From Patescibacteria group bacterium (lineage in GTDB: Bacteria; Patescibacteriota; Microgenomatia; Levybacterales; UBA12049): DNA of 64,000 nucleotides. The DNA is taken from the NCBI GenBank assembly GCA_035510535.1, contig DATKGY010000051.1:6882-70881 (forward strand), read 5' to 3'. Shown piece by piece: positions 6,839 to 23,705 of this stretch. Each line of letters starts with the position of its first letter. Position 1 is the first letter of the stretch. Under the pieces are notes generated by a model that did not search any database, was not told the DNA's origin, and worked only from the letters and a program-made list of their open reading frames with translations. The position numbers and the translations under genes were made by a program.

Positions 6839-7911
6839 TGAAAAGAATTGATTTAATTCTGCTCGTCTCCGTTTTATTCCTGACGTTTTTTGGCCTTTTC
6901 ATGATTTATGATGCTTCTTCTTTTGTGGCCTTCCGCGACTTTGTTGACAAATATCATTTTGTCAGAGACCAATTCTTTTGGATCATTTTGGGTCTGATTG
7001 CGCTTCTTTTTTTCTCCCGCTTTGATTATCATAAGCTTTACAACTTAGCGATACCGATATTACTCGTGGCGGTTGGATTATTGTTGGCAGTTTTTATTCC
7101 CGGAATTGGTGTAAAAACTTTGGGCGCCAGCAGATGGCTTAATTTAAGATTTACAACTCTGCAGCCTTCGGAATTTGTAAAAATTGCCCTAGCAATCTAT
7201 CTTGCCGCCTGGTTTTCAAAAAAAGAAAAAGGCCGGATTTGGGCTTTTCTATTACTCTTGTCGATGATAATTGCCTTAGTTATTTTAGAGCCGGATATGG
7301 GCACGGCAGTTATTGTTCTCGCCGAAGGAATTATTTTATATTTCCTATCAGGAGCCCGAACGCTATATTTTTTTATTCTCGCCCCGATTATCGCAGTGAT
7401 AGGCATTTTGTTTGCGAAGCTTGAGCCCTATCGGGCGGCCAGAGTCACGTCTTATTTAAATTTCAATCAAGACATCAGCAGTTCTTCTTATCATGTCAGG
7501 CAAATCTTAATTGCCCTAGGTTCAGGTGGGCTAACCGGAGTCGGTTTGGGCAATTCTTTACAAAAATATGCTTATCTTCCGGAAAACGCGACCGATTCAA
7601 TCTTTGCGATTATTGCCGAAGAATTGGGATTTATTGGAGCGCTTTTAATCATCGTAGTTTTTGTAATTATTATTTGGCGGGGGTTTTATATTGCTATTCA
7701 TGCCAAGGACCAATTTGGTAAGCTATTAGCAGGAGGAATTATAACTTTTTTAGCGATGCAAATTGTTATTAATTTAGCTGCCCAGACAGCGCTTTTACCT
7801 TTAACCGGTATTCCATTGCCTTTTATTTCATATGGGGGATCGGCGTTGATAATTAATCTCACGGCTGTCGGAATACTTTTAAACATTGCCAAGCAAGAAG
7901 AAAAAGTATGA
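6838..7911 (+). CDS. ftsW: SEDS-family peptidoglycan polymerase FtsW
   Basis: FtsW/RodA/SpoVE family (PENATDSIFAIIAEELGFIG, PLPFISYGGS). Located between mraY and murG. Confidence 0.8.
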   Translation: MKRIDLILLVSVLFLTFFGLFMIYDASSFVAFRDFVDKYHFVRDQFFWIILGLIALLFFSRFDYHKLYNLAIPILLVAVGLLLAVFIPGIGVKTLGASRWLNLRFTTLQPSEFVKIALAIYLAAWFSKKEKGRIWAFLLLLSMIIALVILEPDMGTAVIVLAEGIILYFLSGARTLYFFILAPIIAVIGILFAKLEPYRAARVTSYLNFNQDISSSSYHVRQILIALGSGGLTGVGLGNSLQKYAYLPENATDSIFAIIAEELGFIGALLIIVVFVIIIWRGFYIAIHAKDQFGKLLAGGIITFLAMQIVINLAAQTALLPLTGIPLPFISYGGSALIINLTAVGILLNIAKQEEKV

Positions 7912-9002
7912 AAATCGTAATCACCGGCGGACATTTATCACCGGCCTTAGCAGTTATAGAAAAGCTTGGAAACAGCGAAATTTATTATATTGGTAGAAAA
8001 CATAGCTTTGAAGGAGATAGCGCGACTTCTCTGGAATATGAAGAGATTGTAAAACTTCGCGTTCCTTTCTATTCAATCAATGCGGCCAGATTGCAAAGAA
8101 GATTTACTAAGCACACTATTCCATCTCTGACAAAATTCCCGGTGGGGTTTTTCCAGTCGTTAAAAATCCTAAGGCAAATTAAGCCGGATATTGTTCTAGG
8201 ATTTGGTGGTTATATTTCTTTGCCGGTAATTTTGGCGGCTTTCCTTCTTAGAATACCAATCGTCATTCATGAACAAACTTTGGAAGCCGGATTTGCCAAC
8301 AAAATAGAAGCTAAATTTGCTCAAAAAATTTGTATTTCATGGCAGTCATCGGAACAGTATTTTCCTAAACAAAAAACTGTTTTGACCGGAAATCCGTTAA
8401 GAGGAGTAGTTCTAAACGCAAAACCCTTTAGAGAAGAAACGGGTCTGCCCAAAATTTATATTACTGGGGGAAGCAGCGGGTCGCACGCAATAAATCTGCT
8501 CGTGGAAAAATCTTTGAAAGAGCTTTTGGAAAAATTTACTGTCGTTCATCAAACAGGAGATGCGAGAAGACATGCCGATTTCGAAAGACTGCAATCGGCA
8601 GTAAATAAACTTGATTCCCAGCTTGCCAAAAATTATCATTCACAAAGATTTTTTTCTCCCGAGGATACAGCGAATAATTTAAGCAGGTCTAATTTAGTGG
8701 TTGGTAGGGCGGGATTAAATACCGTGACAGAATTAATTTATTTTAAAACACCGGCTTTTTTAATTCCGTTACCCTTTTCCCAAAGAAATGAGCAATTAAA
8801 AAACGCCCTGTTCTTAAAAGGGTTGGGGCTGGGAGAAATTGGCCTACAAAACGAATTAACTCCGGAAATTTTTGTGGCAAAAATTTTAGCGATGCTTAAA
8901 AATTTAGAAAAGTATCGCCTGGAACAGAATGTTTTAGTTCCCGAAGCGGCCCAAAATATAGTTAAGGTGCTTAAAGATGTTGCGACAAAAAAGACTGCTT
9001 AA
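7908..9002 (+). CDS. murG: Lipid II synthase MurG (UDP-GlcNAc:lipid I GlcNAc transferase)
   Basis: GT28 fold. N-terminal ITGGHLSPALAV and C-terminal ITGGSSGSH motifs. dcw position. Confidence 0.85.
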   Translation: MKIVITGGHLSPALAVIEKLGNSEIYYIGRKHSFEGDSATSLEYEEIVKLRVPFYSINAARLQRRFTKHTIPSLTKFPVGFFQSLKILRQIKPDIVLGFGGYISLPVILAAFLLRIPIVIHEQTLEAGFANKIEAKFAQKICISWQSSEQYFPKQKTVLTGNPLRGVVLNAKPFREETGLPKIYITGGSSGSHAINLLVEKSLKELLEKFTVVHQTGDARRHADFERLQSAVNKLDSQLAKNYHSQRFFSPEDTANNLSRSNLVVGRAGLNTVTELIYFKTPAFLIPLPFSQRNEQLKNALFLKGLGLGEIGLQNELTPEIFVAKILAMLKNLEKYRLEQNVLVPEAAQNIVKVLKDVATKKTA

Positions 9003-9387
9003 AAAAGAAAAACTCAGGGTTAAAATGAAATTAGTCTTTGTTGTCGTCATTCTTTTATTAATAGCAACTATCGGACTGGAGTATTTCTATTTCAATTTCG
9101 TCAAAGCCTCAGTCATTAGCCCTTTGGCAAAAAGTAAGATATCTAATCAAACTAATTTAGAAAATGAACTGACTCAGAGAAGAATTCTTTTTACCAGTGT
9201 TACAGCCAGTTCGGATGGTTCGTTCGCCATAACTCTTTTGGATGGGGGAGAGGTAATTTTATCCTCAAAAAAAGATATTGGGAGCCAATTATCCTCTTTA
9301 CAACTGATCCTATCTAGTCTTACAATAGAAGGAAAGAAGCTGAGAATTTTAGATTTCAGGTTTGATAATCCAGTTGTTTCGTTTTAA
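8977..9387 (+). CDS. Small FtsQ-like bitopic division protein. The start may be 9025.
   Basis: Basic N-terminal tail, one TM helix (LVFVVVILLLIATIGL), short extracytoplasmic domain. The call rests only on its position between murG and ftsA. Confidence 0.4.
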   Translation: MLRQKRLLKKEKLRVKMKLVFVVVILLLIATIGLEYFYFNFVKASVISPLAKSKISNQTNLENELTQRRILFTSVTASSDGSFAITLLDGGEVILSSKKDIGSQLSSLQLILSSLTIEGKKLRILDFRFDNPVVSF

Positions 9388-10737: not shown

Positions 10738-11859
10738 ATGTTAATAAAACCGCAAACAACTAATTTTGCCAAAATAAGAGTGGCGGGAATTGGAGGCGGT
10801 GGAAGCAATGCTTTGAATTCTATGATTTCTCAAAGCACAATTGCAGGAGTAGATTTTATCGCCATTAATACCGATGCCCAGTCGCTTCTCTTAAACCAGG
10901 CAGCCACTAAAATGCAAATCGGTGAAGATTTAACTAAGGGTTTGGGTTCGGGCGGAAATCCGGAAATTGGAAAGCAAGCAGCAGAAGAATCTTACGAAAA
11001 AGTCAAAGAAATGTTGGAGGGGACAGACATGCTCTTCTTGGCCGCGGGATTGGGCGGGGGGACAGGTTCGGGGGCAACTCCTGTAATTGCCAAAGCGGCT
11101 AAAGAAGTCGGAGCGCTAACGGTTGCAGTAGTCACAAAACCATTTGCGTTTGAAGGCACAAGGAGAATGGTTACCGCAGAGGACGCGATAGAAGAAATAA
11201 AGGATAAAGTTGATACTTTAATTGTTATCCCCAACCAAAGAATACTAGATGTAGTTGATAAAAAATTGTCTCTTTTGGAAGCGTTTAAAGTTGCCGATTC
11301 GGTTTTAACGCAGGGCGTGCAGGGTATTTCGGATTTAATTACCCTGCCGGGTTTAATTAATGTTGATTTTGCCGACGTTAAAACAATTATGGCAAACGCG
11401 GGTTCGGCTTTGATGGGCATTGGTACTGGAGTTGGGGAAAACAGGGCCCAAGCCGCCGCCAGAGCCGCAGTCGCATCGCCTCTTTTGGAGATCTCTATGA
11501 ATGGAGCTAGAGGAGTTTTGTTCAACATTATCGGCGGACCCGATTTAACCATGAACGAGGTTGACGAAGCGGCAAAAATTATTGCCTCGGAAGCGGATCC
11601 GGACGCTAACATCATTTTTGGCGCCACGATTGACGAAACCATGCATGACCAGCTCAAGATCACAGTAATTGCCACCGGTTTTGATTCAACCAGGCAAACG
11701 CTAAAAGAATTCATGACACCAACTATTAACCGGGTAATGGAACAATCTCAATCATCAAGCCCAGTAAATAATATTGAACCGCCGGTACCAAGCGAACCGC
11801 CGGTTGAAGAAGAAGACGACACCTGGGACATTCCCGCTTTTTTGAGGCAAAAGAACTAA
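10738..11859 (+). CDS. ftsZ: Cell division GTPase FtsZ
   Basis: GIGGGGSNA and [12 protein letters not shown] tubulin signature. C-terminal conserved peptide [11 protein letters not shown]. Confidence 0.95.
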
Positions 11860-11884
11860 AACTCTAGCTTCATATTTTTAATAG

Positions 11885-11905
11885 AGCACCTTCGGGTGCT
11901 TTTTT
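11885..11905 (+). terminator. Rho-independent terminator after ftsZ
   Basis: agcacc-ttcg-ggtgct hairpin followed by a T5 run. Confidence 0.7.
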
Positions 11906-12035
11906 ATTACTTAAAAGTACTACGGGAGTAGGCATAAAGTTCGTTGATATTAATGGGATGTAGGGTTATATATATCAGTGAAGTTTAGGCATAAAAATAG
12001 TGGAATTTATCGGATTTTTATAGTATAATAAATTC

Positions 12036-12059
12036 AATAAATCCACTGTTTACTCCCCT
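12036..12059 (+). repeat. 24-nt direct repeat, copy 1 (aataaatccactgtttactcccct), in the integrase 5-prime leader
   Basis: Matches 13077-13100 at 23 of 24 positions. Its 3-prime part forms the hairpin tactccc/gggagta that contains the integrase SD. Confidence 0.8.
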
Positions 12060-12070
12060 AGAAAGGGAGT

Positions 12071-13081
12071 ATGAAAATAGACGAAAAAGATTTCCTCTCA
12101 TTTATCACAATTAAGAAGAATTTAGCTAATCAAAGCGTTAGGCATTGTAGAATACGCCTTAGAGTCATTGTTAAGTGGCTAGACGGCAGGGAATTGACTA
12201 AACAGCTTGTTGAACAGTTCTTCATGGAGTTAAAAAACAAAGGCCAAAGAAATAACTCTTTAAATACATATTATTTTGTCTTTAGACAAATACTTGATTA
12301 CTTCAGAGACAGGGGAATCCAAGTAGATTTCTTAGATGGTTTCTCGTCATTTAAAAAAGAGAAGCCGGATATAGTTATTCTATCCATAGAAGAAATAGAA
12401 AAATTAATTAACACCTCGCTTACATATGGAAAGCTGCAGGGGAAAGATTGTACATTTCTAAATATTAGATATGGAATATTAACCATGTTCATTGCGTATA
12501 CGGGTTGTAGATTCTCTGAGGCGTCAAAACTAAAAATCAAAAATCTAGATTTAAGCGAAGGAAAGGCAACGTTTATTGACACTAAAACAAACGAGAATAG
12601 AACAGTATATTTCACAGATCCTTTAATTACCAATTTAAAAGAGTTAATTCTAGGTAGGAAAATTGATGATTTAGTGTTCAGAAATTCTCAAGAGAATGAA
12701 ATAAATCCCCAAGACTTCTCAACAGATATAAAAAGACGAGCTAAAAAAGCGGGTATTATTAAGAGAATGTATCCACACGTTTTAAGGCATAGTTATATAA
12801 CGCACATGCTAGAAGCGGGCGTGCCAATTACTGAAGTTGCTACGCTTGTTGGACATAAAGACATTCAAACAACTTATTCAACCTATATGCATCTTGCGGA
12901 TCAAACATTAAGGAAAGCATCAATGAGAAATCCACTGATTATAAAAAATGTAAATCCGGTTGAAATATTGAAGTCAATTAGAGAAGCAATTGAAAATTTC
13001 CATGTTGATAATGATTCTAGGTTTTTCTATGATTTTAGGGATAAAGGAAATGAGATAGAGTTTAAGTTACTAGTTAAATAA
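12071..13081 (+). CDS. Tyrosine-type site-specific recombinase/integrase
   Basis: C-terminal catalytic region HVLRHSYITHMLEAG...LVGHKDIQTTYSTYMH (HxxR ... H ... Y). N-terminal SAM-like core-binding domain. Confidence 0.9.
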   Translation: MKIDEKDFLSFITIKKNLANQSVRHCRIRLRVIVKWLDGRELTKQLVEQFFMELKNKGQRNNSLNTYYFVFRQILDYFRDRGIQVDFLDGFSSFKKEKPDIVILSIEEIEKLINTSLTYGKLQGKDCTFLNIRYGILTMFIAYTGCRFSEASKLKIKNLDLSEGKATFIDTKTNENRTVYFTDPLITNLKELILGRKIDDLVFRNSQENEINPQDFSTDIKRRAKKAGIIKRMYPHVLRHSYITHMLEAGVPITEVATLVGHKDIQTTYSTYMHLADQTLRKASMRNPLIIKNVNPVEILKSIREAIENFHVDNDSRFFYDFRDKGNEIEFKLLVK

Positions 13082-13100
13082 ATCCATTGTTTACTCCCCT
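13077..13100 (+). repeat. 24-nt direct repeat, copy 2 (aataaatccattgtttactcccct), overlapping the integrase stop codon
   Basis: 23 of 24 identity to 12036-12059. Confidence 0.8.
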
Positions 13101-13105
13101 CGTTG

Positions 13106-13369
13106 CTATGAACTTTGTGTACCTCCTTCCATAAATGCTTTAAATACTTGTAATAGTTCGTGTTTGTTGCAATACCAACCATCGTTAAAGAAATTACAGA
13201 CGCAATCATGCACACATAACGCTTTGCCATATGACACTTTAAGATATGCCTTTTCAAAATCAACATGGCTAATGATTGAAGAAATTCTTCTTTTCTCTCC
13301 ACTAGAGGTATACATCTTCATCAGCCCGTTTTTAAAATACAGTTTCAATAATATTTTTGTCTTTTTCAT
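13106..13369 (-). CDS. Hypothetical small protein (87 aa)
   Basis: ORF only. It competes with an overlapping plus-strand ORF at 13164-13415. No recognisable motif. Confidence 0.25.
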   Translation of the reverse strand: MKKTKILLKLYFKNGLMKMYTSSGEKRRISSIISHVDFEKAYLKVSYGKALCVHDCVCNFFNDGWYCNKHELLQVFKAFMEGGTQSS

Positions 13370-13371
13370 AT

Positions 13372-13398
13372 TGTCCGATTTGTCCGATTTGTCAACTT
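13372..13398. repeat. Tandem 9-nt repeats tgtccgatt x2 plus a degenerate third (tgtcaactt)
   Basis: Read directly from the sequence. Intergenic. Confidence 0.7.
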
Positions 13399-13430
13399 TT
13401 ACTAACTATTCTTAAATTTCTTATATAAGA

Positions 13431-13470
13431 GTAAAAAACTTAGTTTTACTTAGTTTTTACTAGTTTTTAC
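13431..13470. repeat. Iteron-like array: one inverted plus three direct copies of tagttttTAC
   Basis: The sequence reads gtaaaaaact / tagttttact / tagtttttac / tagtttttac, contiguous and downstream of the minus-strand module. Confidence 0.7.
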
Positions 13471-13503
13471 ATGCTATGTAACATATATAACTAGAACATA
13501 TGT

Positions 13504-13785
13504 TTACTTATCTTCTAATAAGGATTCTTTAATTAGCTCTTCGTTATACTTATCGATTACCTGTGAACAGAGATCTGTCCAATCGTCTTTGGTATGGGTT
13601 TTGAAAAGGGGAATCCATGATTTTCCATTAAAATAACTTGGAGCAGTAACGAAGTCTTTTCCGGTTTTTTCATCTCGGAAGATTTTAAAGCCACGCAATT
13701 GATGGGTGTCAAAATCTATTGTTGCCCTTGCTTTAACTTTTGAATCGTTACTTGTTTTTGTAATATTAATATTAATTAGCTTCAT
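13504..13785 (-). CDS. SpoVG-like small nucleic-acid-binding protein (putative)
   Basis: 93 aa. VKARATIDFDTHQLRGFKIFRDEKTGKDFVTAPSY resembles the SpoVG core (A.A.I.D..F.V..I.V.....G.FV.MPS). Confidence 0.4.
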   Translation of the reverse strand: MKLININITKTSNDSKVKARATIDFDTHQLRGFKIFRDEKTGKDFVTAPSYFNGKSWIPLFKTHTKDDWTDLCSQVIDKYNEELIKESLLEDK

Positions 13786-13787
13786 GT

Positions 13788-14015
13788 TTATTCCTGATAT
13801 AGGCGACTCTTTACGTTCTTAATAGCTGAAAAATAATCTTGTGGGTTAACTTGAACTTTTCTTTTCCAATAAGCCTCAATCAGGCTTTCTAATTCTTTGC
13901 TTCTTTTGAAGAGAAATATTGTTTTGTTTGGATAAGTTTTATCTAAAGAGTCGATAGGAAAATAAAGATTTAAAAAAGCGGATAACGCTAGGTCTGATGT
14001 TTGATAGTGCTCCAT
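13788..14015 (-). CDS. DUF5659-like small protein
   Basis: 75 aa. The pattern SDLALSAFLNL...IFLFKRS...EAYW resembles the DUF5659 family common in CPR mobile elements. Assigned from memory, not from a search. Confidence 0.4.
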   Translation of the reverse strand: MEHYQTSDLALSAFLNLYFPIDSLDKTYPNKTIFLFKRSKELESLIEAYWKRKVQVNPQDYFSAIKNVKSRLYQE

Positions 14016-14102
14016 AATTAATAGAAGTATAAATTGTGCTGGTTAATAAAACATTCTGCTAAAGTATGGATTTTCGGAGAAAAACTAAGTTATTTGTCGA
14101 TA

Positions 14103-14909
14103 CTACAGGGGGTAGATTTGATTAAAATAGGCTTTTGTTTCATCCAATATTTTAGCGCATTCCATCCTAGTAGGAACATAGTCCTTGCCAAAATACGATG
14201 GGGTTTTGTCTATTAATGCATTGATTATTTCATCGATCTCTCCCCACGAATGTCTTTCTAGATCTTTCCATATGTAAATCTTTACGCCTAATGCAAATCT
14301 ATTAATATCAATTTTTTGAAGTTTTTTTCTTGGAAGATTTTTCAATACTGGTTCAATCTCTGGCTTCCAATGTTCTTTAAGGTATTGATAGACATTGTCA
14401 ATCTTAACGTCTTCAGATAAAACAATAGATGGATAATTATTCCTGTAATAAATACTGATACCTGCTTGCCACCATTCGATGTCGTCTTGTGTTGTAGCGT
14501 ACGATGGGGGGAAATGAAAAGAAATAGGTTCATAAGCGAAAGGTATAGGTAAAATATCTGTTAGAATTTTCATGCTAATAAACATCGACCATTCTTCGGA
14601 GATTTTATATTTTTGCAAAAAATTTCTCATAAGAGTCAACATCTTAGTAAAAGTTTTTTCGTCTACCTTTTTCCTTATATTTGTAAAAAAATTAGGATCG
14701 CTGCGGTCGTATGGAATTAGTTTGATTTCAAGGTCTTGTCTAATCTTGGAGAGTTCCTTAGATAGGGTTGGATGATAAGTTAAGATAAGGGCATAAGCAA
14801 ATATAGAAGGCTCAAGTGAATCTTCATGCCAATCAACAATCTCAAAAAGTTTTTTGTTAAAAATAAATGATTTTAAAATTTTTCCAATCTTCATATTAAT
14901 GCTGAGCAT
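14103..14909 (-). CDS. Hypothetical protein (268 aa), first gene of the minus-strand module
   Basis: Long ORF with host-like AT-rich codon usage and no motif recognised. The start could be the internal MKIGKIL. Confidence 0.5.
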   Translation of the reverse strand: MLSINMKIGKILKSFIFNKKLFEIVDWHEDSLEPSIFAYALILTYHPTLSKELSKIRQDLEIKLIPYDRSDPNFFTNIRKKVDEKTFTKMLTLMRNFLQKYKISEEWSMFISMKILTDILPIPFAYEPISFHFPPSYATTQDDIEWWQAGISIYYRNNYPSIVLSEDVKIDNVYQYLKEHWKPEIEPVLKNLPRKKLQKIDINRFALGVKIYIWKDLERHSWGEIDEIINALIDKTPSYFGKDYVPTRMECAKILDETKAYFNQIYPL

Positions 14910-14994
14910 ATTTTACTACTTCTTTTTTATACTGTCTATTTTGTTGAATTTAGTTGAGTTTTCCGAGACTTTAAAAAATAGAATAGTAAGCCTA

Positions 14995-15070
14995 TTGACG
15001 CAAATAATATTATTTACTAAGATTTATTTAGAGACCTTGCTTGGGCAAACCTGCGGGGTCTCTATTTTTT
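14995..15070 (+). promoter_or_regulatory. Candidate promoter (TTGACG-17-TAAGAT) followed at once by a strong hairpin plus T-run
   Basis: ttgacg 14995-15000 and taagat 15018-15023. Hairpin tagagacc 15029-15036 / ggtctcta 15057-15064, then T6 at 15065-15070. Confidence 0.4.
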
Positions 15071-15121
15071 GACTTCAATCAAGAATAAGAGTATAAAAAG
15101 TAAAGTAGTTATTTATTATTT

Positions 15122-15850
15122 GTGCCTAAATCAAAGAAGCATATAAAGAAAATAGATGAAGCTAAACCAGTAAATATTCTAGCGGATAAGCAATTGCTGG
15201 TGGTTATCGTAGTTGTATTAATAATATGTGTTCTGATTGGAATTAAGACAGTAAGTTCTTATGTATTAAGCTCTAATATAGCCCCAACTCCCACAATAGA
15301 TTTACCTATTCCAACTCCAACTCCGACTGATACTCCTACTCCAACTCCTGAAATCAAAATTACTAATGTTCCAATTGCAGATCCTGGTAGTAAAACAACA
15401 GATACTGCAGTTAGGCAAACTGGAAAATATACCTTCGAAGGAAACCTACCATGTGATGACAGAATGGGAGATGCATCAGAAATATATGCTGCACTTAATA
15501 ATTATAGGCAGGTTCATGGAGCAAGCTCTCTTGCATGGAATGATAAGCTAGCATCTGTAGCACAAATGAGAGTTGGTCAAATTACAGCAAATGGGGGGAG
15601 ATCAGATAGCCATGCTGGATTTATTACTTTTACAAACGATCAAAGCAACTATGCGAAAGTTGGATTTAGTGAATTAAGTGAAAATACGGGAGGAACTGGG
15701 AACTGTCCTTTGCTTGGAGTTCATGTCATTGAATGGTTATTTGCTAGAGATGCGCCACATAATAATGCCCAATTGGATAGATGGGATGCAGTAGGAATTG
15801 CTGAAGGTCAAAATAATGTTGTAGTGATTTTTGGAAGAAGCCCTTTGTAG
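15122..15850 (+). CDS. Membrane-anchored secreted CAP/SCP (PR-1-like) domain protein with a Pro/Thr linker
   Basis: GTG start. TM helix LLVVIVVVLIICVLIGI, linker PTPTIDLPIPTPTPTDTPTPTPE, then a CAP-like core (YRQVHGASSLAWNDKLASVAQ...HAG). Confidence 0.6.
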   Translation: MPKSKKHIKKIDEAKPVNILADKQLLVVIVVVLIICVLIGIKTVSSYVLSSNIAPTPTIDLPIPTPTPTDTPTPTPEIKITNVPIADPGSKTTDTAVRQTGKYTFEGNLPCDDRMGDASEIYAALNNYRQVHGASSLAWNDKLASVAQMRVGQITANGGRSDSHAGFITFTNDQSNYAKVGFSELSENTGGTGNCPLLGVHVIEWLFARDAPHNNAQLDRWDAVGIAEGQNNVVVIFGRSPL

Positions 15851-16018
15851 GGAATAACATAAATAAACGAAAAATATTATAAATTTTATATCCCAGAGTA
15901 AATCGCTTAGCCTCAAAACAATTTTAGGGTAGGGAGTTTAGCCTCAAATCTATGTCGTAATATAGATGTTGTGCGACATAGAGCATATTAATTATTTATG
16001 TGATATAATTTATTTAAT

Positions 16019-16912
16019 ATGCCAGGAAGAGGGAGACCAAGAAAAAATCCTATTCCTGCCCCACAAATTCAAGCTACCACACCGGTAGCTGCTACGGTTG
16101 TTGTTCAAGCACCACCAAAGAATGTTTTATTTTTTATTGACCAAACAGAAGCTGGTATCGGTAGAAGGGACATAGAGCTTGTTGAAAAAGTCTTAGATGG
16201 TAAATCGGGAGATTTATTATATCTAGTATTACAAACATACGGCGGTGATGTATATTCTGCCGTTAAAATTATGCGCATTCTGCAATTCAAATTTAAGGAG
16301 ATAAAAGTTATTATTCCTGATTTTGTTTACAGTTCTGGTACGATAATGGCATTAGGTGGAGATACGCTTTATTTCGATGTTGACGCATGCATTGGACCTT
16401 TGGATAAACCAATGGAGAATCCAAGAGATGGTTCTGATATCTCCTCACTGGATATTACAAATACTTTAACAAATATTGCTTCTACGATTGAGTCAATCGC
16501 AACTTCTTTTTATGGAAGCCTCAGGGTGGATAGCAAGATTAAGCTTTCTAAAATTGAAGCTGCAAAATTAGCTTATGAATCTGCTGTAAATATTGTTAAC
16601 CCAATTATAAATAAAATTGATCCGTACTTTTTACAAAGTGGATACAGGCAAACCCAAATCGGTTTAAGATACGCCGTAGATATGTTAGCTAGCAGAATGA
16701 AAAGGAATAATATTAAAGAGGCTGTCGATACCGCTCTTGATTTAGTTAATAAATACCCTGCTCATAGTTATGGCATTTATCGTGAAGAAGCAAAATATAG
16801 TTTAAATCTGGAAACAGAAAATTTAGAAACCCTAGCAGAATGGGGCACACTTAAAGTTAAGTTTGATACATTAAAGAAGTCTTCAAATGCAATTGAATTT
16901 ATGGTATTCTAA
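16019..16912 (+). CDS. SDH-family Clp-fold serine protease (S49/ClpP-like) with an N-terminal AT-hook
   Basis: LVLQTYGGDVYSAVKIMRIL...YSSGTIMALGGDTLYF...GPLD matches the serine-dehydrogenase-proteinase / SppA-ClpP fold pattern. The N-terminus GRGRPRKNP is an AT-hook motif. Confidence 0.6.
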   Translation: MPGRGRPRKNPIPAPQIQATTPVAATVVVQAPPKNVLFFIDQTEAGIGRRDIELVEKVLDGKSGDLLYLVLQTYGGDVYSAVKIMRILQFKFKEIKVIIPDFVYSSGTIMALGGDTLYFDVDACIGPLDKPMENPRDGSDISSLDITNTLTNIASTIESIATSFYGSLRVDSKIKLSKIEAAKLAYESAVNIVNPIINKIDPYFLQSGYRQTQIGLRYAVDMLASRMKRNNIKEAVDTALDLVNKYPAHSYGIYREEAKYSLNLETENLETLAEWGTLKVKFDTLKKSSNAIEFMVF

Positions 16913-17139
16913 TTACATGTTGAGTGGATATTTATATTTTAGCGATACTAACAAAAGGGATATTAAAACTGAGCCTAATAATATAAAAGTTACTGATATT
17001 TTAGAAGGCGGTCGAGAGATATTTTCTGATTGGATTGAAAAGGAAGCAACTAAAGTATTAGAGGCCAGGAAATCCTCCAAAGTTGAAAAGAGAAAATAAT
17101 CTACACTTGTTTTTCCAACATAAAAAGTCTATATTATCC

Positions 17140-17221
17140 TTAGGTGTTTTTAGTAGGAATTGAAGCTAGAAACAAGGGATGTCTTGGATAATCCCGCATG
17201 GCCTTGACAGATATCATTTAA
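17140..17221 (+). repeat. Decayed ftsZ-tail scar unit (copy D)
   Basis: About 60-65% identical by hand alignment over about 80 nt to the unit at 18391-18469. The tail part gat aat ccc gca tgg cct tga is a degraded DIPAF... sequence. Confidence 0.55.
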
Positions 17222-17239
17222 CTTTGCCATTATAAATAT

Positions 17240-18388
17240 ATGGAACCAAATACACCAAATAATGATTTAATTGCAAAAGCGAAAATTGATACCCTAGATA
17301 TTGTTTCTCCTCAAGAAAATGATAGTTTGGGTTCTACTGCTTGGAGAGAATACTTAAATAGCGGTTCTCTGGGAGATGTATGGTCTGTTCCTGAAGGAAG
17401 TCCTTATGCTAGGTTTCAAAAAAGTAGCACTATAGACTCCATAGATAAATGTGATAGCGTAATCAAACCACGATATAGCAAAGGCGAACAAACGAGTGAA
17501 AAAGGAATAGATACTTTAATAGCCACAGGTGTTTTAGATTCACATACTGCAATTGTTTTAGATTCTGGGCATGCTCATAGCGTAGCAATGGCAGTTAAAT
17601 TAGCAGAGCAGGGTTATCAACCCGTTGTGATGTTAAATGATGAAGTAACTTCAAATAGATCAAATTCTGCTGAACAAGGATTAGCAACTTTATTATATTT
17701 TGCTGAACAAGTGAAAATTTTAAAAGCACAAGGTAAAATTAAATCAGATTCTCCTCCAGTTTTTATTTTAGATTTTCATCGTAGCTCTAGTTTCGTGCCT
17801 CAAGATTTTCCAACTGGAGAAGAATTGAGTCAAGCTGGAATAGATAAGGTAGTGTATCTCAATGAAGGAGATCAAAGTGGCGAAATTAATGCCAACTATC
17901 AGTCTACTGATAGACTATCAAGGGATTTAAAGTCAATTGCTTCCAATTGGGAAAGTGAGGGTCTTAATATAACTTATACAGGGGTATCTCCTTGGGTGGG
18001 AGAGCGTAACGCTTTTTTCTCACAGGGTTTAGTTCGTGGATTAAGTCGTAGATTAAATATGGGCGGCGCTTATGTTAGTGATGGTTATGCTTTTGAATCC
18101 GGATTGTCATATTCCAATATGGATCCTGAGGTATATGGAAAGAAAGATGCTTTAGGAATTGCAATGCATCACAATAGAGAAAGGTTTATTTTTACTAGAG
18201 AGGGTAAGTTGGAGGTAATCAATGAAAGTGGAGTGGCAAGAGCTATGCAACCTGAGGAAATCGAACAATTTCAAGAAGCAATAAGAAAAGCATTGGAGCT
18301 TCATCCAGACAACTTACAGATGATGGACGTATCTAATAGATTATCACAAGCAATTCAACCGATTAGTTTAGAAAATAAAGATAAATAG
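17240..18388 (+). CDS. Hypothetical protein (382 aa)
   Basis: Long ORF lying between two ftsZ-tail scars. No motif recognised. Confidence 0.5.
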   Translation: MEPNTPNNDLIAKAKIDTLDIVSPQENDSLGSTAWREYLNSGSLGDVWSVPEGSPYARFQKSSTIDSIDKCDSVIKPRYSKGEQTSEKGIDTLIATGVLDSHTAIVLDSGHAHSVAMAVKLAEQGYQPVVMLNDEVTSNRSNSAEQGLATLLYFAEQVKILKAQGKIKSDSPPVFILDFHRSSSFVPQDFPTGEELSQAGIDKVVYLNEGDQSGEINANYQSTDRLSRDLKSIASNWESEGLNITYTGVSPWVGERNAFFSQGLVRGLSRRLNMGGAYVSDGYAFESGLSYSNMDPEVYGKKDALGIAMHHNRERFIFTREGKLEVINESGVARAMQPEEIEQFQEAIRKALELHPDNLQMMDVSNRLSQAIQPISLENKDK

Positions 18389-18390
18389 GT

Positions 18391-18469
18391 TTAGGCGTTT
18401 TTAATAAAAGTAGAAGTTAGAAAAGGGGATAGATAAGACATTCCCGCCTTCCTTAGACAAAAAAATTAG
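18391..18469 (+). repeat. ftsZ-tail scar unit (copy B). The tail proper is 18437-18469.
   Basis: gac att ccc gcc ttc ctt aga caa aaa aat tag encodes [10 protein letters not shown]. It is 25 of 33 nt identical to ftsZ 11827-11859 and all differences are synonymous. Confidence 0.85.
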
Positions 18470-18589: not shown

Positions 18590-19195
18590 ATGGAAAGCTT
18601 GGAATATTTACCAAAATTATATTTTATTAAATCAATTCCAAATGAGGAGTATGCATATTTAACACAATTTTTGACTTATGTTGTTCCTGCATTTACAAGC
18701 GAAGCTCCTTTATCTTTTGCTGTTCATCTTGGGGCTGCATTTGCTAAATCTGGTTTTAGCATGAGAAAGCTTGGCTTAGATTCGGGAGTAAGCCACTCGG
18801 AAATATCACGTTTATTAAGTAATAGTAAGATACCAAAATTAGCTACGGCAGCACGCATTATTGAGAGTCTAAACTTAAGTGATGCACAAGCATTTAAAAT
18901 AGTTGTAGATTCAATTCCCCTTGATGTAAAAAGTAATTCTCTTAGATCGGTTTTCGCAGACGCTGCGCCCCAGTTAAGAGGAAGCTTTAGAGAGCAACTA
19001 AAAGGATATAGGCAGGCAAGAGATTTATCAATACCGTTATTAGCTGCTAGGGCTAAAATCGATAGAGCATTTGTGTGGAGAGTAGAATCCGAAGGAAGAC
19101 CTCTTGGATTTATTACATTTGCTGCTTTAGTTTCTGCATTAGGCTTAAATCCTAAACAAGTTCGTGGTTGCCTAATTGCCGCCGCTAATCAATAA
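18590..19195 (+). CDS. Transcriptional regulator with two XRE-type helix-turn-helix domains
   Basis: Two HTH units: MRKLGLDSGVSHSEISRLLSNSKIPKLATAARIIESLNL and LKGYRQARDLSIPLLAARAKIDRAFVWRVESEGR. Confidence 0.6.
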   Translation: MESLEYLPKLYFIKSIPNEEYAYLTQFLTYVVPAFTSEAPLSFAVHLGAAFAKSGFSMRKLGLDSGVSHSEISRLLSNSKIPKLATAARIIESLNLSDAQAFKIVVDSIPLDVKSNSLRSVFADAAPQLRGSFREQLKGYRQARDLSIPLLAARAKIDRAFVWRVESEGRPLGFITFAALVSALGLNPKQVRGCLIAAANQ

Positions 19196-19239
19196 ATTAA
19201 GTTCGCTCAAATTCTTTCAGAACTTCGCTTCGGCTACGG

Positions 19240-19270
19240 CCTGCATTCATTCTTAAGGCAGAAGAATTAA
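19240..19270 (+). repeat. ftsZ-tail scar (copy E) carrying a 4-nt duplication
   Basis: cct gca ttc [attc] tta agg cag aag aat taa. Removing the duplicated attc restores PAFLRQKN*. As it stands the in-frame reading is FLRQKN*. Confidence 0.8.
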
Positions 19271-19294
19271 ATCCCAAATTTTCCACCCCATAGT

Positions 19295-19322
19295 TTGACT
19301 TTCAAGATTTTTGTGGTATAAT
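19295..19322 (+). promoter_or_regulatory. Near-consensus sigma70-type promoter (TTGACT-16-TGgTATAAT) facing the flp operon
   Basis: ttgact 19295-19300 and tataat 19317-19322 with an upstream TGn extended -10. Confidence 0.5.
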
Positions 19323-19630
19323 CCATGCTTAGTGACAAAATAAACCCGGACTAATTTGCTGTCCGGAGTTTTGTTCTGTTACTTAGTTTTAATTGCACTT
19401 TGACAAGTTGCGAAAAATATTTTCATCAGATGGTGACGCCTTGGACATTAAGCGATTAGTGTCTAGAGCGTCATCATCAGATGATCATAGTAGTTACAAA
19501 GAAAGGAGGGTACTCGACATATTGCATTTTCAAAAGAAAGTAGTATGAAGGGAGTATCTATAAGTTAGTACGGATTAGGTTCGGTTTCACGGTTGTTCAA
19601 TCACGCAAGAGAATAGGAGTGAGGACTACG

Positions 19631-19774
19631 ATGTTTCGTTTTTCATCCAAAGGACAAGGTCTCGCTGAATACGCACTCATTCTCGCTCTCGTCGCCATCG
19701 TGGCTGTCGTTGCACTGCTCTTTCTGAGCGGCGAAATCAAGTCAATCCTGAGCATCATCGGCAAGTCGCTCTAG
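19631..19774 (+). CDS. flp: Flp-family type IVb pilin (47 aa). Absent from the ORF track because of its size.
   Basis: My translation is MFRFSSKGQGLAEYALILALVAIVAVVALLFLSGEIKSILSIIGKSL. It has the Flp processing motif G-xxxx-EY followed by a hydrophobic helix. SD ggag lies about 10 nt upstream. Confidence 0.75.
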   Translation: MFRFSSKGQGLAEYALILALVAIVAVVALLFLSGEIKSILSIIGKSL

Positions 19775-19917
19775 CGCGTCGCACTCGTCACTTGCTTAAC
19801 TGCAAGCTTTATTTTGAGTCAAACGCAGTATGGAGGTGGATACCCACAAGGCTTAAAAGCCAGCGTCTCCCGTCAAGTAACCGAGTCATCGAAGACTCAC
19901 GAGTCAAGGAGGAAACC

Positions 19918-21195
19918 GTGTTTAGTGTTCGTCGATTTTTCGCTGTATTCGCATGTGCTGCACTTTTGGGTGTTAGCATATTTGCGATCACGGCCAGTCC
20001 TGTCGTTCATCAACAATCAGTAGCTGCGTGGTCCCAACCGGGATTCACCGCGGTCTACGACTGCGACGGCAATGTCATCACCACCGTTAATCTCGCCAAC
20101 GAAGGCCAAAACGCGAACTACGATTATCAATTGGCATGGGGACCGGTAGGGCTTACCAAGCAGAGTGATCTGAACGCTCTCAACTGGACGACCTATACCG
20201 GCGCACAAGGGAACAACCAACAGACCATCGCGGCTGGAACTGGAGTTCTCTACGTACGCTGGGTAGCTGATTACAACAGTTGGAACTCGGCAACTCCTAG
20301 CGCAGCTAGCAATTGCACGGCGCCGCCTGACCCGCCTGTCATCACGCCTGTCTGCATGACGACGCTTCAGAGCGACCATTCAGCTGACGACCCCGGCTAC
20401 ACGGAGTACAACTGGTACATCGTGCTTCCCGGCGTCGCGAACGACTACAACATGGACTATTCAACAAACGGAACCGACTGGGTTGGACCTGATGACTGGT
20501 CTGATCAAAACGATCCCATTGCTGGCGGCGGCTGGGGCGGACCTATGACTACAACCTCGTACCCGAACTTCGGGATCGACGGCCACGAGTTGTGGGTTCG
20601 CTGGTCTGCCTACAGTAGTGTGGTTATCGGTCCGGTCGTAAATCCATACCCAGTTACGGCAGCTGGTCGTTCCTGCGGCACTCCTACGCCTCCGGCTCCT
20701 CCTGTCGTAAAGTGCGGCGGAACGGTTTCGTTCAGCAATGTCCCCGACGGCTGGAAACTGATCATCGAACCTGACGTCCTTGTTACCTCTGGTTTCGATT
20801 CCATCAGCCTGGCCCCCGGCGACTACACTTACCAATGGCGAGATGCCGATAACAACGACATGGTTGGCGGCACCTTCACCATCGGCGTCTGTCCGACTCC
20901 GACTCCGACACCCGCACCTACGTGCGTTGTCTCTGTCAGAGCAGACACGGTTGTCCAAGTCACGCCCGCACCTTGCGCAACTCCGGTTGTCACACCGACT
21001 CCGAAATCGACTTCGACTCCGGTCGCTTCGACCTCTGTCAAGCCAAAGAAAACTCCGGCAACTACCAGTATCGCTGGCGGTTCAGATGAATCAGACTCCA
21101 ACAGCATCCCGCTGTTCCCTCTGTTCATCTGCCTGATTCTTGGCGGAATTGGTGTTGGGGTGACTCTCATGGTCCAAAGGCGAGCGGCCCATTGA
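19918..21195 (+). CDS. Secreted or surface protein with an internal repeat, Pro/Thr linkers and a C-terminal TM anchor
   Basis: The likely start is GTG 19918, 5 nt after AAGGAGG; the ORF-track start 19792 lacks an SD. N-terminal signal/anchor FFAVFACAALLGVSIFAITA. Repeated motif LYVRWVADYNSW / LWVRWSAYSS. CPTPTPTPAPTC linker. C-terminal LFICLILGGIGVGVTLMV-QRRAAH. Confidence 0.65.
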   Translation: MFSVRRFFAVFACAALLGVSIFAITASPVVHQQSVAAWSQPGFTAVYDCDGNVITTVNLANEGQNANYDYQLAWGPVGLTKQSDLNALNWTTYTGAQGNNQQTIAAGTGVLYVRWVADYNSWNSATPSAASNCTAPPDPPVITPVCMTTLQSDHSADDPGYTEYNWYIVLPGVANDYNMDYSTNGTDWVGPDDWSDQNDPIAGGGWGGPMTTTSYPNFGIDGHELWVRWSAYSSVVIGPVVNPYPVTAAGRSCGTPTPPAPPVVKCGGTVSFSNVPDGWKLIIEPDVLVTSGFDSISLAPGDYTYQWRDADNNDMVGGTFTIGVCPTPTPTPAPTCVVSVRADTVVQVTPAPCATPVVTPTPKSTSTPVASTSVKPKKTPATTSIAGGSDESDSNSIPLFPLFICLILGGIGVGVTLMVQRRAAH

Positions 21196-21485
21196 CCTGC
21201 TAAACTAGCCTGATCCACCTGGATTTAGACTAGCTCGTAGTGGAGAAGCTCAGCCATAGCTTGGTACAAAGGATCCATTTAGGATCTAACGCCAAAGCTT
21301 CTTGATGCTGAGCAACTCCGATTTGGAGAAAGAAAGGACTACTATGTTCAAAAAACAACCCGTTTCGGGATATCCAATCACAGCTAACGCTGAGAAAGGT
21401 CCCGAACCATTTTCGCAACGCACTCAAGTGTTAAAGGCACCGCAAGGTGATAGACTCTAAAGAGTATTTACTGCACGCGCAGTCT

Positions 21486-21510
21486 GCTGACTTTCGTCAG
21501 CTACTTTTTT
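21486..21510 (+). terminator. Rho-independent terminator closing the high-GC segment
   Basis: gctgac-tttc-gtcagc hairpin, then tac plus a T7 run. Confidence 0.6.
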
Positions 21511-21554
21511 TATTTTATTACCCCATGGTGCCTTTTTTCCTTTTTGGGAGAGGA

Positions 21555-23705
21555 TTACTCTTTCGTAGGCTTAGAATATCTTTCTTTGGAGACGCGGATT
21601 ACCGTTTTTCTATTCTGGTTTTTACTCATAGGGAGTGGCAGAGTTTGCGCCAAAAACGGCGGGCAGGTAATACTATCTATTGAAAGTTTTGTTAAGATTT
21701 GATAATTTCCCAGAGCCAATAAATCTTCTTCTTTAAATCTTTCCCCTAATTCTTTAGCCAAATAGAAAGCGTCCCCGGCGCCGACTATGAATGAAATTAA
21801 GCTTCCGACATTACCAAAAATTGCCGCTCTGACATCTTCGGGAACTTGCGCCATATACTGATTTGCCATAATTAAATCTAAGTGATATTTTCTGGCCTCG
21901 GACAAAATTTTAATAAAGGAATTAGTAGCAAAATTTTGGAACTCGTCAACATACAGATAAAAATCCTTCCTTTGCTCTTCAGCTAAATCAACCCGATTCA
22001 TCGCCGCCAGTTGTAGTTTTGTAATTATCATCGCGCCCAAAAGTGAAGAATTATCTTCTCCTAATTTTCCCTGAGAAAGATTAAGCAGTACAATTTTTCC
22101 TTCGTTCATAATTTTTTCCAAATCAATGGTTGACTTAGGAGCGCCGATAATATTTCTAACAATATTAGAAGATATAAATTGACCAACCTTATTAAGAATA
22201 GGCGAAATAGATTCGCTCATTAACCGTGGCGTCATGGTTTCAAATTCATTCAGCCAGTAATTTTTTAAAACCGGATCGTTTAGCTTTGCGACAACTTTGT
22301 CCCGGTAACTTTTATCCGTTAATAAACCGGGAACTTCCAAAAAAGTCGAATCGGGAACTTCCAAAAGGGTCAAAATAGTATTTCTTAAAATATACTCAAG
22401 CCGTGGTCCCCAGGAATTTCCATAAAGTTTTTTAAAGATAGAAACAATACCGGAAGCAACTAGTTCTTTTTGCGTGTTCCCGACCTCAAGCGGATTAAGA
22501 TGAAAAGAGCTTGAAGAAGAATCTGACGGATCCAGATAAATTACGTCGTTAATCCGGTTTGACGGAATGTAATCCAAAATTATTTCTGTTAAGTCCCCAT
22601 GCGGATCAATTACCGCTACCCCTTCTCCATTTCTGATATCGTTGATCGCCATATTGGCGATGAGCGTGGATTTTCCGGCGCCGGTTTTCCCGATAATATA
22701 AGTATGTTTTCGTCTATCCTTTCCTTTGATGCCAAAATTCGTCAGTTTATTTTTAAATTCGGTATTAGCAAAAAAATTAATCTCCTGTTTTTCTGCGTCG
22801 CCCAAACCTTGAGCGATTGGTAAATTTTCCGGCGGTTCGGAAAAGATGGCTTTAGTCCAAGAAAGATTGTGAATTTTGGCCAGCTGTTCCGTCGGTAGGT
22901 GGTAAAGACTGGCAATTTCCGAAACATTTAAAACTTGATTTGACGGGATAAAAGACCTACTGCGCTTAATAAGTGCTCTTTCAAATCTGTCTTTTTGCCA
23001 AAGATGCGGGCGTCTTAAATAAAAGCTGTTGCCGATGGGATTATTAAAAATAGAAAATCCGTTGACAATATTAAAGAATAAACCCGGATTGTCACTTTTA
23101 ACTAAGATTCTTATACCGGTGCGGAAACCGTTTTGGCTGATTTTATCGGTAATAATTTTTTTATATTGATTAAGAGGGTTCTCTCTGTCCGGATCTGTGC
23201 TTTTAAGAATTGCCGTTTGGCCTTTTGTCTGCCAGCCGGTACCGATTGGTACCAGTAGGTATTGAATTACCGCTTTGTCATCTTTATCCAGTTTTGCCAA
23301 AATCCCTAAAATTGAGCTTAGCGGATCAACGTCCTTAAAATCTTTATAAGTTTTTATTGGGAACAAAGCTCCATGTTTTAATTTAAGCCTTCCTTCATAA
23401 AGTTCTCCCGGGGAACTTAAGATATCCGGTAAGTAGTCCTTATTTTTTGCAATTAGCGCTTTGGGGTATTGAGCGGTTAACTGACCTTCAATAAAAGTTT
23501 GGAATTTCTGCGGAATCACAATAAAAAAATGAGTTCTCTGCTCAAAGGTGGCAATCTCTAGGCTAATTGGTATCCCGCGCCTGTAAAAATAGACTATTTG
23601 ACGTTTTAAGTTAACCAGACTGGAGAGAAATTGCGTCATGGCTTCCGAAGTTTCCTCGGTATTTCTGGGTGTTTTAATTTCCAAAATAACTTTGTCGCTG
23701 TCCAT
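21555..23705 (-). CDS. FtsK/HerA/TraD-VirD4-superfamily P-loop ATPase (type IV coupling-protein-like), soluble
   Basis: Walker A IIGKTGAGKST and Walker B FYLYVDEFQNF. C-terminal ARKYHLDLIMANQY...GNVGSLISF resembles the TraD/TraG C-terminal domain. No TM helices seen at the N-terminus. Confidence 0.6.
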   Translation of the reverse strand: MDSDKVILEIKTPRNTEETSEAMTQFLSSLVNLKRQIVYFYRRGIPISLEIATFEQRTHFFIVIPQKFQTFIEGQLTAQYPKALIAKNKDYLPDILSSPGELYEGRLKLKHGALFPIKTYKDFKDVDPLSSILGILAKLDKDDKAVIQYLLVPIGTGWQTKGQTAILKSTDPDRENPLNQYKKIITDKISQNGFRTGIRILVKSDNPGLFFNIVNGFSIFNNPIGNSFYLRRPHLWQKDRFERALIKRSRSFIPSNQVLNVSEIASLYHLPTEQLAKIHNLSWTKAIFSEPPENLPIAQGLGDAEKQEINFFANTEFKNKLTNFGIKGKDRRKHTYIIGKTGAGKSTLIANMAINDIRNGEGVAVIDPHGDLTEIILDYIPSNRINDVIYLDPSDSSSSSFHLNPLEVGNTQKELVASGIVSIFKKLYGNSWGPRLEYILRNTILTLLEVPDSTFLEVPGLLTDKSYRDKVVAKLNDPVLKNYWLNEFETMTPRLMSESISPILNKVGQFISSNIVRNIIGAPKSTIDLEKIMNEGKIVLLNLSQGKLGEDNSSLLGAMIITKLQLAAMNRVDLAEEQRKDFYLYVDEFQNFATNSFIKILSEARKYHLDLIMANQYMAQVPEDVRAAIFGNVGSLISFIVGAGDAFYLAKELGERFKEEDLLALGNYQILTKLSIDSITCPPFLAQTLPLPMSKNQNRKTVIRVSKERYSKPTKE

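Follow-up and report, generated by a model that had tools for sequence, protein, structure and literature searches.

An uncalled 47-codon Flp/Tad-type prepilin gene on a high-GC islet in a Levybacteria chromosome

How does the gene for a minimal pilin come to stand, with no pilus genes beside it, in the chromosome of a bacterium of the candidate phyla radiation (CPR, Patescibacteria)? The gene in question, flp, lies at positions 19631-19774 (forward strand) of a 64-kb stretch of contig DATKGY010000051.1; the whole stretch is referred to here as the window. An initial annotation had proposed an uncalled 47-aa Flp pilin gene at this position, and translation, motif and homologues confirm it. The best explanation, and probably the correct one, is that flp is a horizontally acquired, fixed and selected Flp/Tad prepilin gene whose product would be processed and polymerised by machinery encoded elsewhere. 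The window flp belongs to a known pilin family and is notable only for lacking nearby pilus machinery. Pili are thought to be central to host attachment in CPR/Patescibacteria, where only the type IVa pilus (T4aP) has been described (PMC11623550). A Tad-type pilin of high-GC origin, kept by selection and paired with a fast-changing surface protein, suggests an extra, horizontally supplied attachment component.

The prepilin gene and its family

The frame at 19631-19774 is intact and translates to MFRFSSKGQGLAEYALILALVAIVAVVALLFLSGEIKSILSIIGKSL* (47 aa). It is absent from the list of open reading frames (ORFs) because it falls under the default 60-aa limit of that list; the flp gene of a sister lineage is uncalled too, and pilin genes of 40-60 residues are as a class lost under length cut-offs. 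The first eight codons (19631-19654, forward strand) encode the predicted leader peptide MFRFSSKG, which ends in G8 and is followed by QGLAEYALILALVAIVAVVAL. Sequence properties and DNA homology delimit a predicted mature pilin of 39 residues, QGLAEYALILALVAIVAVVALLFLSGEIKSILSIIGKSL, encoded at 19655-19771 on the same strand. The motif is G8 / Q9 G10 L11 A12 E13 Y14 and is followed by an uncharged hydrophobic run. The predicted mature product thus has Glu5 and Tyr6, and proline is absent from it.

Two Shine-Dalgarno (SD) motifs, AGGAG at 19616-19620 and GAGGA at 19622-19626, precede the ATG by 5-15 nt. The flp stop is separated by 143 nt (19775-19917) from the GTG start of a surface-protein gene at 19918, which is preceded by AAGGAGG. 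An upstream SD and this spacing had been noted in the initial annotation and are borne out by the sequence. A promoter-like site, TTGACT-16 nt-(TG)TATAAT (19295-19322, forward strand, 11/12 matches in a consensus scan), sits in low-GC host-like DNA and gives a predicted leader of about 300 nt. This leader or 5' untranslated region with the SD motifs (19323-19630, forward strand), identified by direct reading, lies within window 19307-19762, which has 83% identity to the DNA of a third Levybacteria lineage (L065). The -35 and extended -10 elements are kept in the other two Levybacteria lineages, L065 and L021. The consensus scan also gave two terminator-like hairpins on the forward strand, a weak one, CTTGCttaactGCAAG then CTTTATTTTG, directly past the flp stop (19791-19814) and one, GCTGACtttcGTCAGC then TACTTTTTTT, at the end of the two-gene unit (21486-21511). 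The promoter and the terminators are consensus matches alone and are treated as candidate signals. No Rfam family of riboswitch or leader RNA was found at 19100-20000, where the only match was a meaningless one to a microRNA (E 0.5).

A phmmer search with the flp product in a database of 5.8 billion sequences gave 4097 proteins at E<=0.01. The nearest non-identical homologues have E values of 1e-15 to 1e-12, and the near ones are 64-88% identical to the query. Many of these carry a precomputed PF04964 (Flp_Fap) match or bear the name 'Flp family type IVb pilin' (Chloroflexi, Limnocylindrales), and others bear that of 'pilus assembly protein Flp/PilA'. When 28 members of the clade were scanned singly, PF04964 matched 25 at E<=1e-3 (best 2.3e-6) and PF04021 (Class_IIIsignal) matched three. 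The whole clade appears, from these profile matches, to be a divergent Flp subfamily.

When the 28 relatives are aligned, the residues ahead of position -1 differ in sequence and in number (6-21), position -1 itself being G or A. Invariant residues set in exactly at Q9, with the pattern QGLAEYA.ILAL.AI. Throughout the clade 18 positions never change, E13 and Y14 among them, and this holds for the two Levybacteria copies that were aligned. A variable segment before -1 with invariance starting at Q9 is the signature of a cleaved leader. The only matches of the flp product in the PDB are the Caulobacter Tad pilins 8u1k and 8u2b, at E 0.23 with the single sequence and at E about 1e-3 with the clade profile, which had no other credible match. 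E13 and Y14 align with E5 and Y6 of mature Caulobacter PilA, and the cut is therefore predicted to fall after G8. An AlphaFold2 (AF2) model of the product is one continuous helix over residues 6-46, with a mean confidence score (pLDDT) of 85.5.

A class III signal peptide is defined by a hydrophilic leader of 6-26 aa with Gly as its last residue, a following stretch of about 21 residues that are mainly hydrophobic, and Glu5 (PMC4471445); the flp product has all of these. It also agrees with the published description of Tad pilins as proteins of 40-60 aa that form a continuous helix without a globular domain and without Pro22, and with a conserved Tyr6 (PMC10710030). Together with the homologues, the tad-operon relatives described below, the PDB match, the AF2 model and the ratio of nonsynonymous to synonymous substitution rates (dN/dS), these features indicate that 19631-19774 is a genuine Flp/Tad-type (type IVb/IVc) prepilin gene, as judged from sequence.

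Flp1 of Aggregatibacter actinomycetemcomitans and the Cpa pilin PilA of Caulobacter crescentus (8u1k, 8u2b; PF04964) are likewise very short prepilins with a hydrophilic leader ending in Gly, Glu5-Tyr6 past the cut and a proline-free continuous helix without a globular domain. The window flp product differs from both in its leader of only 8 aa, in Gln at +1, in QGLAEY rather than xTAIEY, in a sub-threshold PF04964 score and in the lack of adjacent tad/cpa genes, and its mature part has 39 aa whereas that of Caulobacter PilA has 45.

Three relatives on long contigs (P0003, P0077 and P0024) show what the genomic setting of this clade can be. In each, flp is directly upstream of genes for RcpC/CpaB, TadZ (Response_reg and ParA domains), TadA/CpaF (T2SSE), TadB and TadC (two T2SSF genes), and a two-component system lies upstream of flp. 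Since flp heads tad operons there, this clade provides the major pilin of a genuine Tad system in bacteria of Chloroflexota type. The contigs with tad-linked relatives (L011-L020) are Chloroflexota-type and have 67-69% GC. P0003 is 88% identical to the window flp product locally and 83% end to end. Across the Chloroflexota-type clade the protein identity is 68-88%, with a common invariant core, QGLAEYALILAL.AI, and many members are also exactly 47 aa long. DNA identity is 77-79% and is limited to the mature part (window 19649-19765). The leader peptide is MFRFSSK in the window and MLIRSEK in the Chloroflexota-type clade. The setting is different as well: the clade has tad genes downstream, a two-component system upstream and high-GC contigs, whereas the window flp has a surface-protein gene downstream, a chromosome of about 37% GC and an intermediate GC content at third codon positions (GC3).

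A metagenome scan with the Levybacteria-type flp alignment gave 80 loci among the matches listed, all of 60-75% GC; no new CPR context was among the matches listed, and neither were the contigs of the window itself. In a scan of viral contigs with the flp alignment there were three weak matches (43-68% identity) on large 'viral' contigs and no sign of phage carriage of the flp cassette.

Two further features of the tad-linked loci were observed. A conserved, uncharacterised 59-aa ORF is found between the HisKA_3 kinase gene and flp (L011 9593-9772, with equivalents in L012-L018). In L019 and L020 there are two or three tandem flp paralogues instead.

The high-GC islet and its partner gene

Composition, GC3 and synteny edges define a high-GC islet at 19604-21230 that holds flp and the surface-protein gene only. 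It is 1.6 kb long and has 51-61% GC, against about 37% for the window. Its left edge is the start of homology to a metagenome contig (L061), and at its right edge core synteny with the sister lineage (L021) resumes at 21231. GC3 is 0.60 in flp and 0.59 in the surface-protein gene, compared with 0.21-0.42 in neighbouring host genes and 0.81-0.88 in Chloroflexota-type flp. As in a horizontal islet, composition and codon use deviate and the nearest relatives are found in another taxon. Mobility signatures of its own were not seen, and no bounding repeats were found at 19.6-21.2 kb.

Independent assemblies from ENA, JGI and Logan contain at least 10 metagenome contigs on which the exact flp was called, all 99.9-100% identical to the window across the junction between a low-GC helix-turn-helix (HTH) gene and the high-GC flp. 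Seen in 10 or more independent assemblies, the junction is no chimera, and both it and the foreign composition of the islet are taken as established.

Three diverged Levybacteria lineages have flp in the same chromosomal slot: the window, a sister lineage (L021-L023 and the genome locus L027) and L065. Among 34 related CPR genome loci, flp was present in the sister lineage only. The sister lineage is syntenic with the window from ftsA-ftsZ to the VirD4-like gene, ileS, rodA and rplU, with 81-82% DNA identity. Its flp, also 47 codons, lies upstream of the surface-protein gene for P0123 and encodes MSRYFQRGQGLAEYAMILALIAIAAVLALLFLSHAITSVLSTLGKSL, 68% identical to the window product. In L065 the low-GC leader and flp have 83% DNA identity to window 19307-19762, and the tail matches window 21240-21656. 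A further candidate for slot evidence, L028 (Levyibacteriota SPRUCE 49), was dropped as it has the VirD4-like gene alone in common and its flanks are non-syntenic.

Selection was estimated by the Nei-Gojobori method between the window and the sister lineage. For flp, dN/dS is 0.25 and dS 1.07, an estimate made from 47 codons in which dS approaches saturation and base composition differs. The surface-protein gene gave a dN/dS of 0.31 and a dS of 1.36, and ftsZ, ftsA, the VirD4-like gene and ileS gave dN/dS of 0.03-0.05 and dS of 0.9-2.2. These ratios indicate that flp and the surface-protein gene are under purifying selection, more relaxed than that on core genes. Since the dS of the islet is like that of core genes, the islet has diverged for about as long as the surrounding chromosome. 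Its position in the same slot in three lineages, the conserved promoter, the core-like dS and a dN/dS of about 0.25 together mark flp as old, fixed and selected; positional conservation and selection are thus counted among the established points. The initial annotation had described an orphan pilin travelling on a foreign fragment. 'Foreign' holds for the 1.6-kb islet by GC and GC3, and 'travelling' does not, the gene being fixed, old and outside the integrase element of the window.

The composition of the islet and the tad-linked relatives suggest that flp is native to high-GC, Chloroflexota-type bacteria and was probably acquired horizontally by an ancestor of Levybacteria. The closest flp is found on L061, a 2-kb contig of 52% GC throughout. 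Its product is 83% identical to that of the window with a dS of 0.27, closer than that of the syntenic sister, and the gene downstream resembles the L065 surface-protein gene. L061 may be from a moderate-GC donor lineage, or may be a larger island in another strain.

On L061 a leader of about 70 nt (GAAAGGTAGGC.GCCTAT.GATAGCG.TTGAACCAGGGAAGTTCATCCGCA...GGAGGAGAAA) occurs in nearly the same form before flp (1460-1540) and before the surface-protein gene (1780-1845). Just upstream of the second copy, L061 1732-1768 is 87% identical to window 19861-19899, ahead of the surface-protein gene. The repeated leader may be a shared regulatory or translation leader.

The second gene of the islet (19918-21195, forward strand, identified as an ORF and from its translation) encodes a secreted cell-surface protein of 425 aa, rich in proline and threonine (PT-rich). 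It has a Sec-type signal peptide, all-beta modules, a P/T-rich linker and a C-terminal anchor tail of the form 'SNS..PLF..TM helix..QRR', where TM is transmembrane. Only 11 homologues were found in the database, P0123 among them, and a Cys-bounded module, 'CGGTVSFS...GTFTIGVC', is present in one to three copies among them. No Pfam or NCBIfam family and no known sorting signal matched the surface proteins and their conserved C-terminal tail. An AF2 model of the 425-aa protein from an alignment of 11 sequences was poor (mean pLDDT 52). The gene lies at 10001-11197 in L021 and at 750-1916 in L065. A strain variant (L005) has an additional in-frame 77-aa copy of the Cys-bounded module. In L065 the whole ectodomain is replaced, and the signal peptide and C-terminal anchor regions alone align, at about 31%. 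From this pattern of variation the protein has the look of an anchored adhesin that diversifies rapidly. In each of the three Levybacteria lineages, and also in L061, a gene for an anchored surface protein follows flp.

Proposed assembly in trans and the rival explanations

The proposed course of events is as follows. An ancestor of the Levybacteria lineage would have taken up flp horizontally, with or beside the gene for the anchored PT-rich surface protein. The two genes now stand fixed between ftsZ and the core VirD4-like ATPase gene, apparently driven by a host-like promoter, and both have been under purifying selection since the lineages split. The 47-residue precursor is expected to insert into the membrane, where an aspartic A24 prepilin peptidase encoded elsewhere would cut the 8-residue leader after Gly8; cleavage at this site is inferred from the alignments. 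The 39-residue, all-helical subunit would then be polymerised into a thin filament by an assembly ATPase and platform encoded elsewhere. The motor may be a tad set or the type IVa machinery generally carried by CPR bacteria, and the filament would serve in attachment, probably with the variable surface protein. Cleavage, assembly, the machine used and the adhesive role are thus proposals.

Published work on other systems leaves room for such an arrangement. T4aP, PilD included, is well conserved in Patescibacteria and is the pilus type documented there (PMC11623550). Prepilin peptidases are promiscuous, often encoded away from their system and common to several systems (PMC6668835, PMC12075869), and the Tad major pilin KilP of Myxococcus is cut by a non-cognate peptidase, possibly PilD (PMC12075869). 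By analogy with these cases, machinery acting in trans on the flp product is plausible.

Several points weigh against a Tad prepilin that is still assembled by machinery in trans. The initial annotation had stated that a Tad peptidase and secretion machine are absent from the window, and this was upheld: among about 50 window ORFs scanned with Pfam, none has a T2SSE, T2SSF, Peptidase_A24, RcpC/CpaB or TadE/F domain. Pilus machinery was likewise not found in the approximately 4 kb past the right end of the window, where there are only dnaE and a GGDEF-domain protein; these negatives cover the 64-kb window and that flank. In the tad-linked relatives flp is beside its machinery in 10 of the 10 loci read for the three proteins. 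A copy standing alone is therefore atypical, and its product may have ceased to be assembled. When the 64 kb were scanned in six frames for G/A/S-xxxx-E-aromatic/aliphatic followed by 16 uncharged hydrophobic residues, flp and one false positive within FtsW were found, and thus no second prepilin-like gene in the window. No published description of Flp or Tad in CPR was found, the mentions of 'Tad' in PMC10469934 referring to Myxococcota. Against a firm choice of donor, the closest flp is on the 52% GC contig. The counts of promoter and terminator matches are no higher than expected in shuffled sequence, and the limits of the flp dN/dS estimate given above belong here as well.

The family assignment has its own weak side. 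The initial annotation had held that the call would be weakened without a PF04964 hit. A match exists, but at 20.5 bits (E 4.2e-4) it is under the Pfam gathering cut-off of 32.2. PF04021 scores the product about equally and is nominally the best Pfam match, at 21.6 bits (E 2e-4, cut-off 23.7), and no pilin family of NCBIfam matched. As the PF04964 test is passed only weakly, membership in Flp rests on the homologues, which are annotated as Flp pilins, and on their tad-operon context. A tad/cpa neighbourhood is present in the tad-linked relatives, which are 70-88% identical to the window product, and absent around the window flp; such a neighbourhood defines the system and not the protein family of the pilin.

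The rival that survives best, though it is considerably less likely than Tad-type assembly in trans, is that flp encodes a functional Flp-type peptide that has been co-opted and is not Tad-assembled. A resident type IVa PilD might process it and the T4aP machinery use it, or it might act as a low-abundance subunit. Alternatively it might be a non-polymerising, single-pass membrane peptide partnered with the surface protein, for example by pairing with its C-terminal TM segment, or form a split arrangement loosely like PilA-N/PilA-C of Geobacter sulfurreducens. The absence of tad genes from the window fits this rival, as do the purifying selection on both genes and the constant pairing of flp with an anchored surface-protein gene despite the swap of the ectodomain. 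For Patescibacteria the pilus on record is T4aP with PilD (PMC11623550), and peptidase promiscuity, including the cutting of a Tad major pilin by a non-cognate enzyme, is documented (PMC12075869). Geobacter offers a precedent, in that a short pilin there has a partner encoded by a separate gene downstream (PMC10710030).

These parallels have limits. The T4aP of Patescibacteria/Saccharibacteria (PilA1/PilA2, PilB, PilC, PilD, PilM/N/O and PilT in Nanosynbacter lyticus TM7x; PMC11623550) has in common with the window a CPR host, a class III signal-peptide substrate and a presumed attachment role, and a PilD-type peptidase would be the resident enzyme most likely to cut the flp product. T4aP pilins are 'lollipops' with a globular domain, whereas the flp product is a bare Tad-type helix with Tyr6 and of outside origin. 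In Geobacter, too, a short helix-only pilin gene stands directly before a gene for a secreted protein (PMC10710030), a resemblance of gene order only. Unlike PilA-C, the partner of the window type has 390-430 aa, carries a Sec signal of its own, is anchored in the membrane by its C-terminus and is swapped between lineages. The mature pilin is moreover almost unchanged from its tad-operon relatives (the QGLAEYA core given above), as continued Tad-type polymerisation predicts. Also weighing against co-option, de Bentzmann and co-workers (2006) are reported to have found that Flp processing in Pseudomonas aeruginosa needs a dedicated enzyme, FppA.

A bolder form of co-option can be put forward only as a tentative idea, on which we would place still less weight. 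A CPR bacterium without Tad would have domesticated a foreign minimal Tad pilin, which T4aP (PilD, PilB, PilC) would assemble or whose helix would pair with the surface protein, and flp with the variable adhesin would be a two-gene attachment cassette for episymbiosis. If true, this would mean use of a Tad pilin across systems and a new kind of pilin-adhesin module. If the genome is without tad genes, the locus is a natural test of whether T4aP machinery or PilD can handle a pilin of Tad type; should the genome have a tad locus at another site, flp is a detached major-pilin gene and ordinary.

It is unlikely that flp is a decaying relic left from a transferred piece of a tad operon, without function and intact by chance. 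Its detachment from all machinery, its foreign composition and a dN/dS of 0.25 against 0.03-0.05 in core genes, which indicates relaxed selection, are what a relic would show. However, frame, start, SD and motif have stayed intact in all three lineages, between which the flanking core genes have about 81-82% DNA identity at a dS of about 1. The dN/dS is also far under 1, the promoter is kept and 18 positions are invariant across the clade.

Less likely still is an archaeal-type pilin with a class III signal peptide (Epd-like, PF04021) instead of a bacterial Flp. PF04021 gives nominally the best Pfam score and the KG|Q cut site is like that of prepilins in archaea. The accepted view has Tad pili descending from archaeal ones (PMC6668835, PMC10710030), and the closeness of the PF04021 and PF04964 scores is consistent with that ancestry. 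The PF04021 score is nevertheless under its own cut-off, that family matches three of the 28 clade members where PF04964 matches 25, the relatives are in bacterial tad operons with TadZ and RcpC/CpaB, and the Tad hallmark Tyr6 is invariant.

An assembly chimera, a contaminating high-GC fragment or a chance hydrophobic ORF is hardly credible: the GC jump is abrupt and high-GC organisms with a close flp occur in the same samples (L011 and L001, both ERZ27247317), but the same junctions recur at 99.9-100% identity in the independent ENA, JGI and Logan contigs, syntenic diverged copies exist in L021-L023, L027 and L065, and homologues reach E values down to 1e-15.

The host chromosome and neighbouring elements

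The window encodes the dcw cluster (mur genes, ftsW, murG, ftsA, ftsZ), ileS, rodA, rplU and parB, as well as glycosyltransferases, the ATP synthase operon and dnaE. Next to the islet, on the reverse strand (21555-23705), is the gene for a 716-aa VirD4/TrwB/HerA-like ATPase with DUF87, TrwB_AAD_bind and TraG-D_C matches; DUF8128 is precomputed on its homologue. Its relatives are 95% identical in a Patescibacteria metagenome-assembled genome (MAG; L027), 93% in a Levyibacteriota MAG from SPRUCE peat (L028), about 62% in other Levybacteria and about 48% in Woesebacteria. On account of these relatives the host is assigned to Levybacteria (CPR). The gene is kept at 48-95% identity across Levy-, Woese-, Gottesman- and Shapirobacteria and adjoins ileS in the window and in L021-L023. 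It looks, from this conservation, like a core CPR gene without an assigned role and not like island cargo. A conjugative element marked by the VirD4/TrwB-like ATPase and carrying flp was rejected because the ATPase is conserved across these four groups.

A 6.6-kb integrative element (11827-18469) is found at the 3' end of ftsZ. It is bounded by imperfect direct repeats of about 33 bp (GACATTCCCGC...) at 11827-11859 and 18437-18469. It encodes a tyrosine integrase (12071-13081), a SpoVG-like protein (13504-13785, reverse strand), a DUF5659 protein (13788-14015, reverse strand), a secreted CAP-domain protein (15122-15850), an SDH/ClpP-like protease (16019-16912) and two further ORFs of 268 and 382 aa. 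In an empty-site contig (L003) the ftsZ end (window 11858) is joined directly to window 18437 with one 33-bp repeat at the junction, and flp is kept; the population is thus polymorphic for the element. Since the empty site still carries flp, the integrase element is separate from the islet, and carriage of flp on it was rejected.

What lies between ftsZ and flp is variable. At 18590-19195 the window has a 201-aa double-HTH (Xre-type) gene, and L021 has in the same slot (7740-9373) an NYN-domain gene and a gene of 55% GC for a 184-aa PT-rich, lipoprotein-like protein. Signalling by c-di-GMP often controls pili and adhesion, and a 244-aa GGDEF-domain protein (putative diguanylate cyclase) is encoded next to dnaE past the right end of the window, at 4118-4852 of L151 and 4043-4777 of L152.

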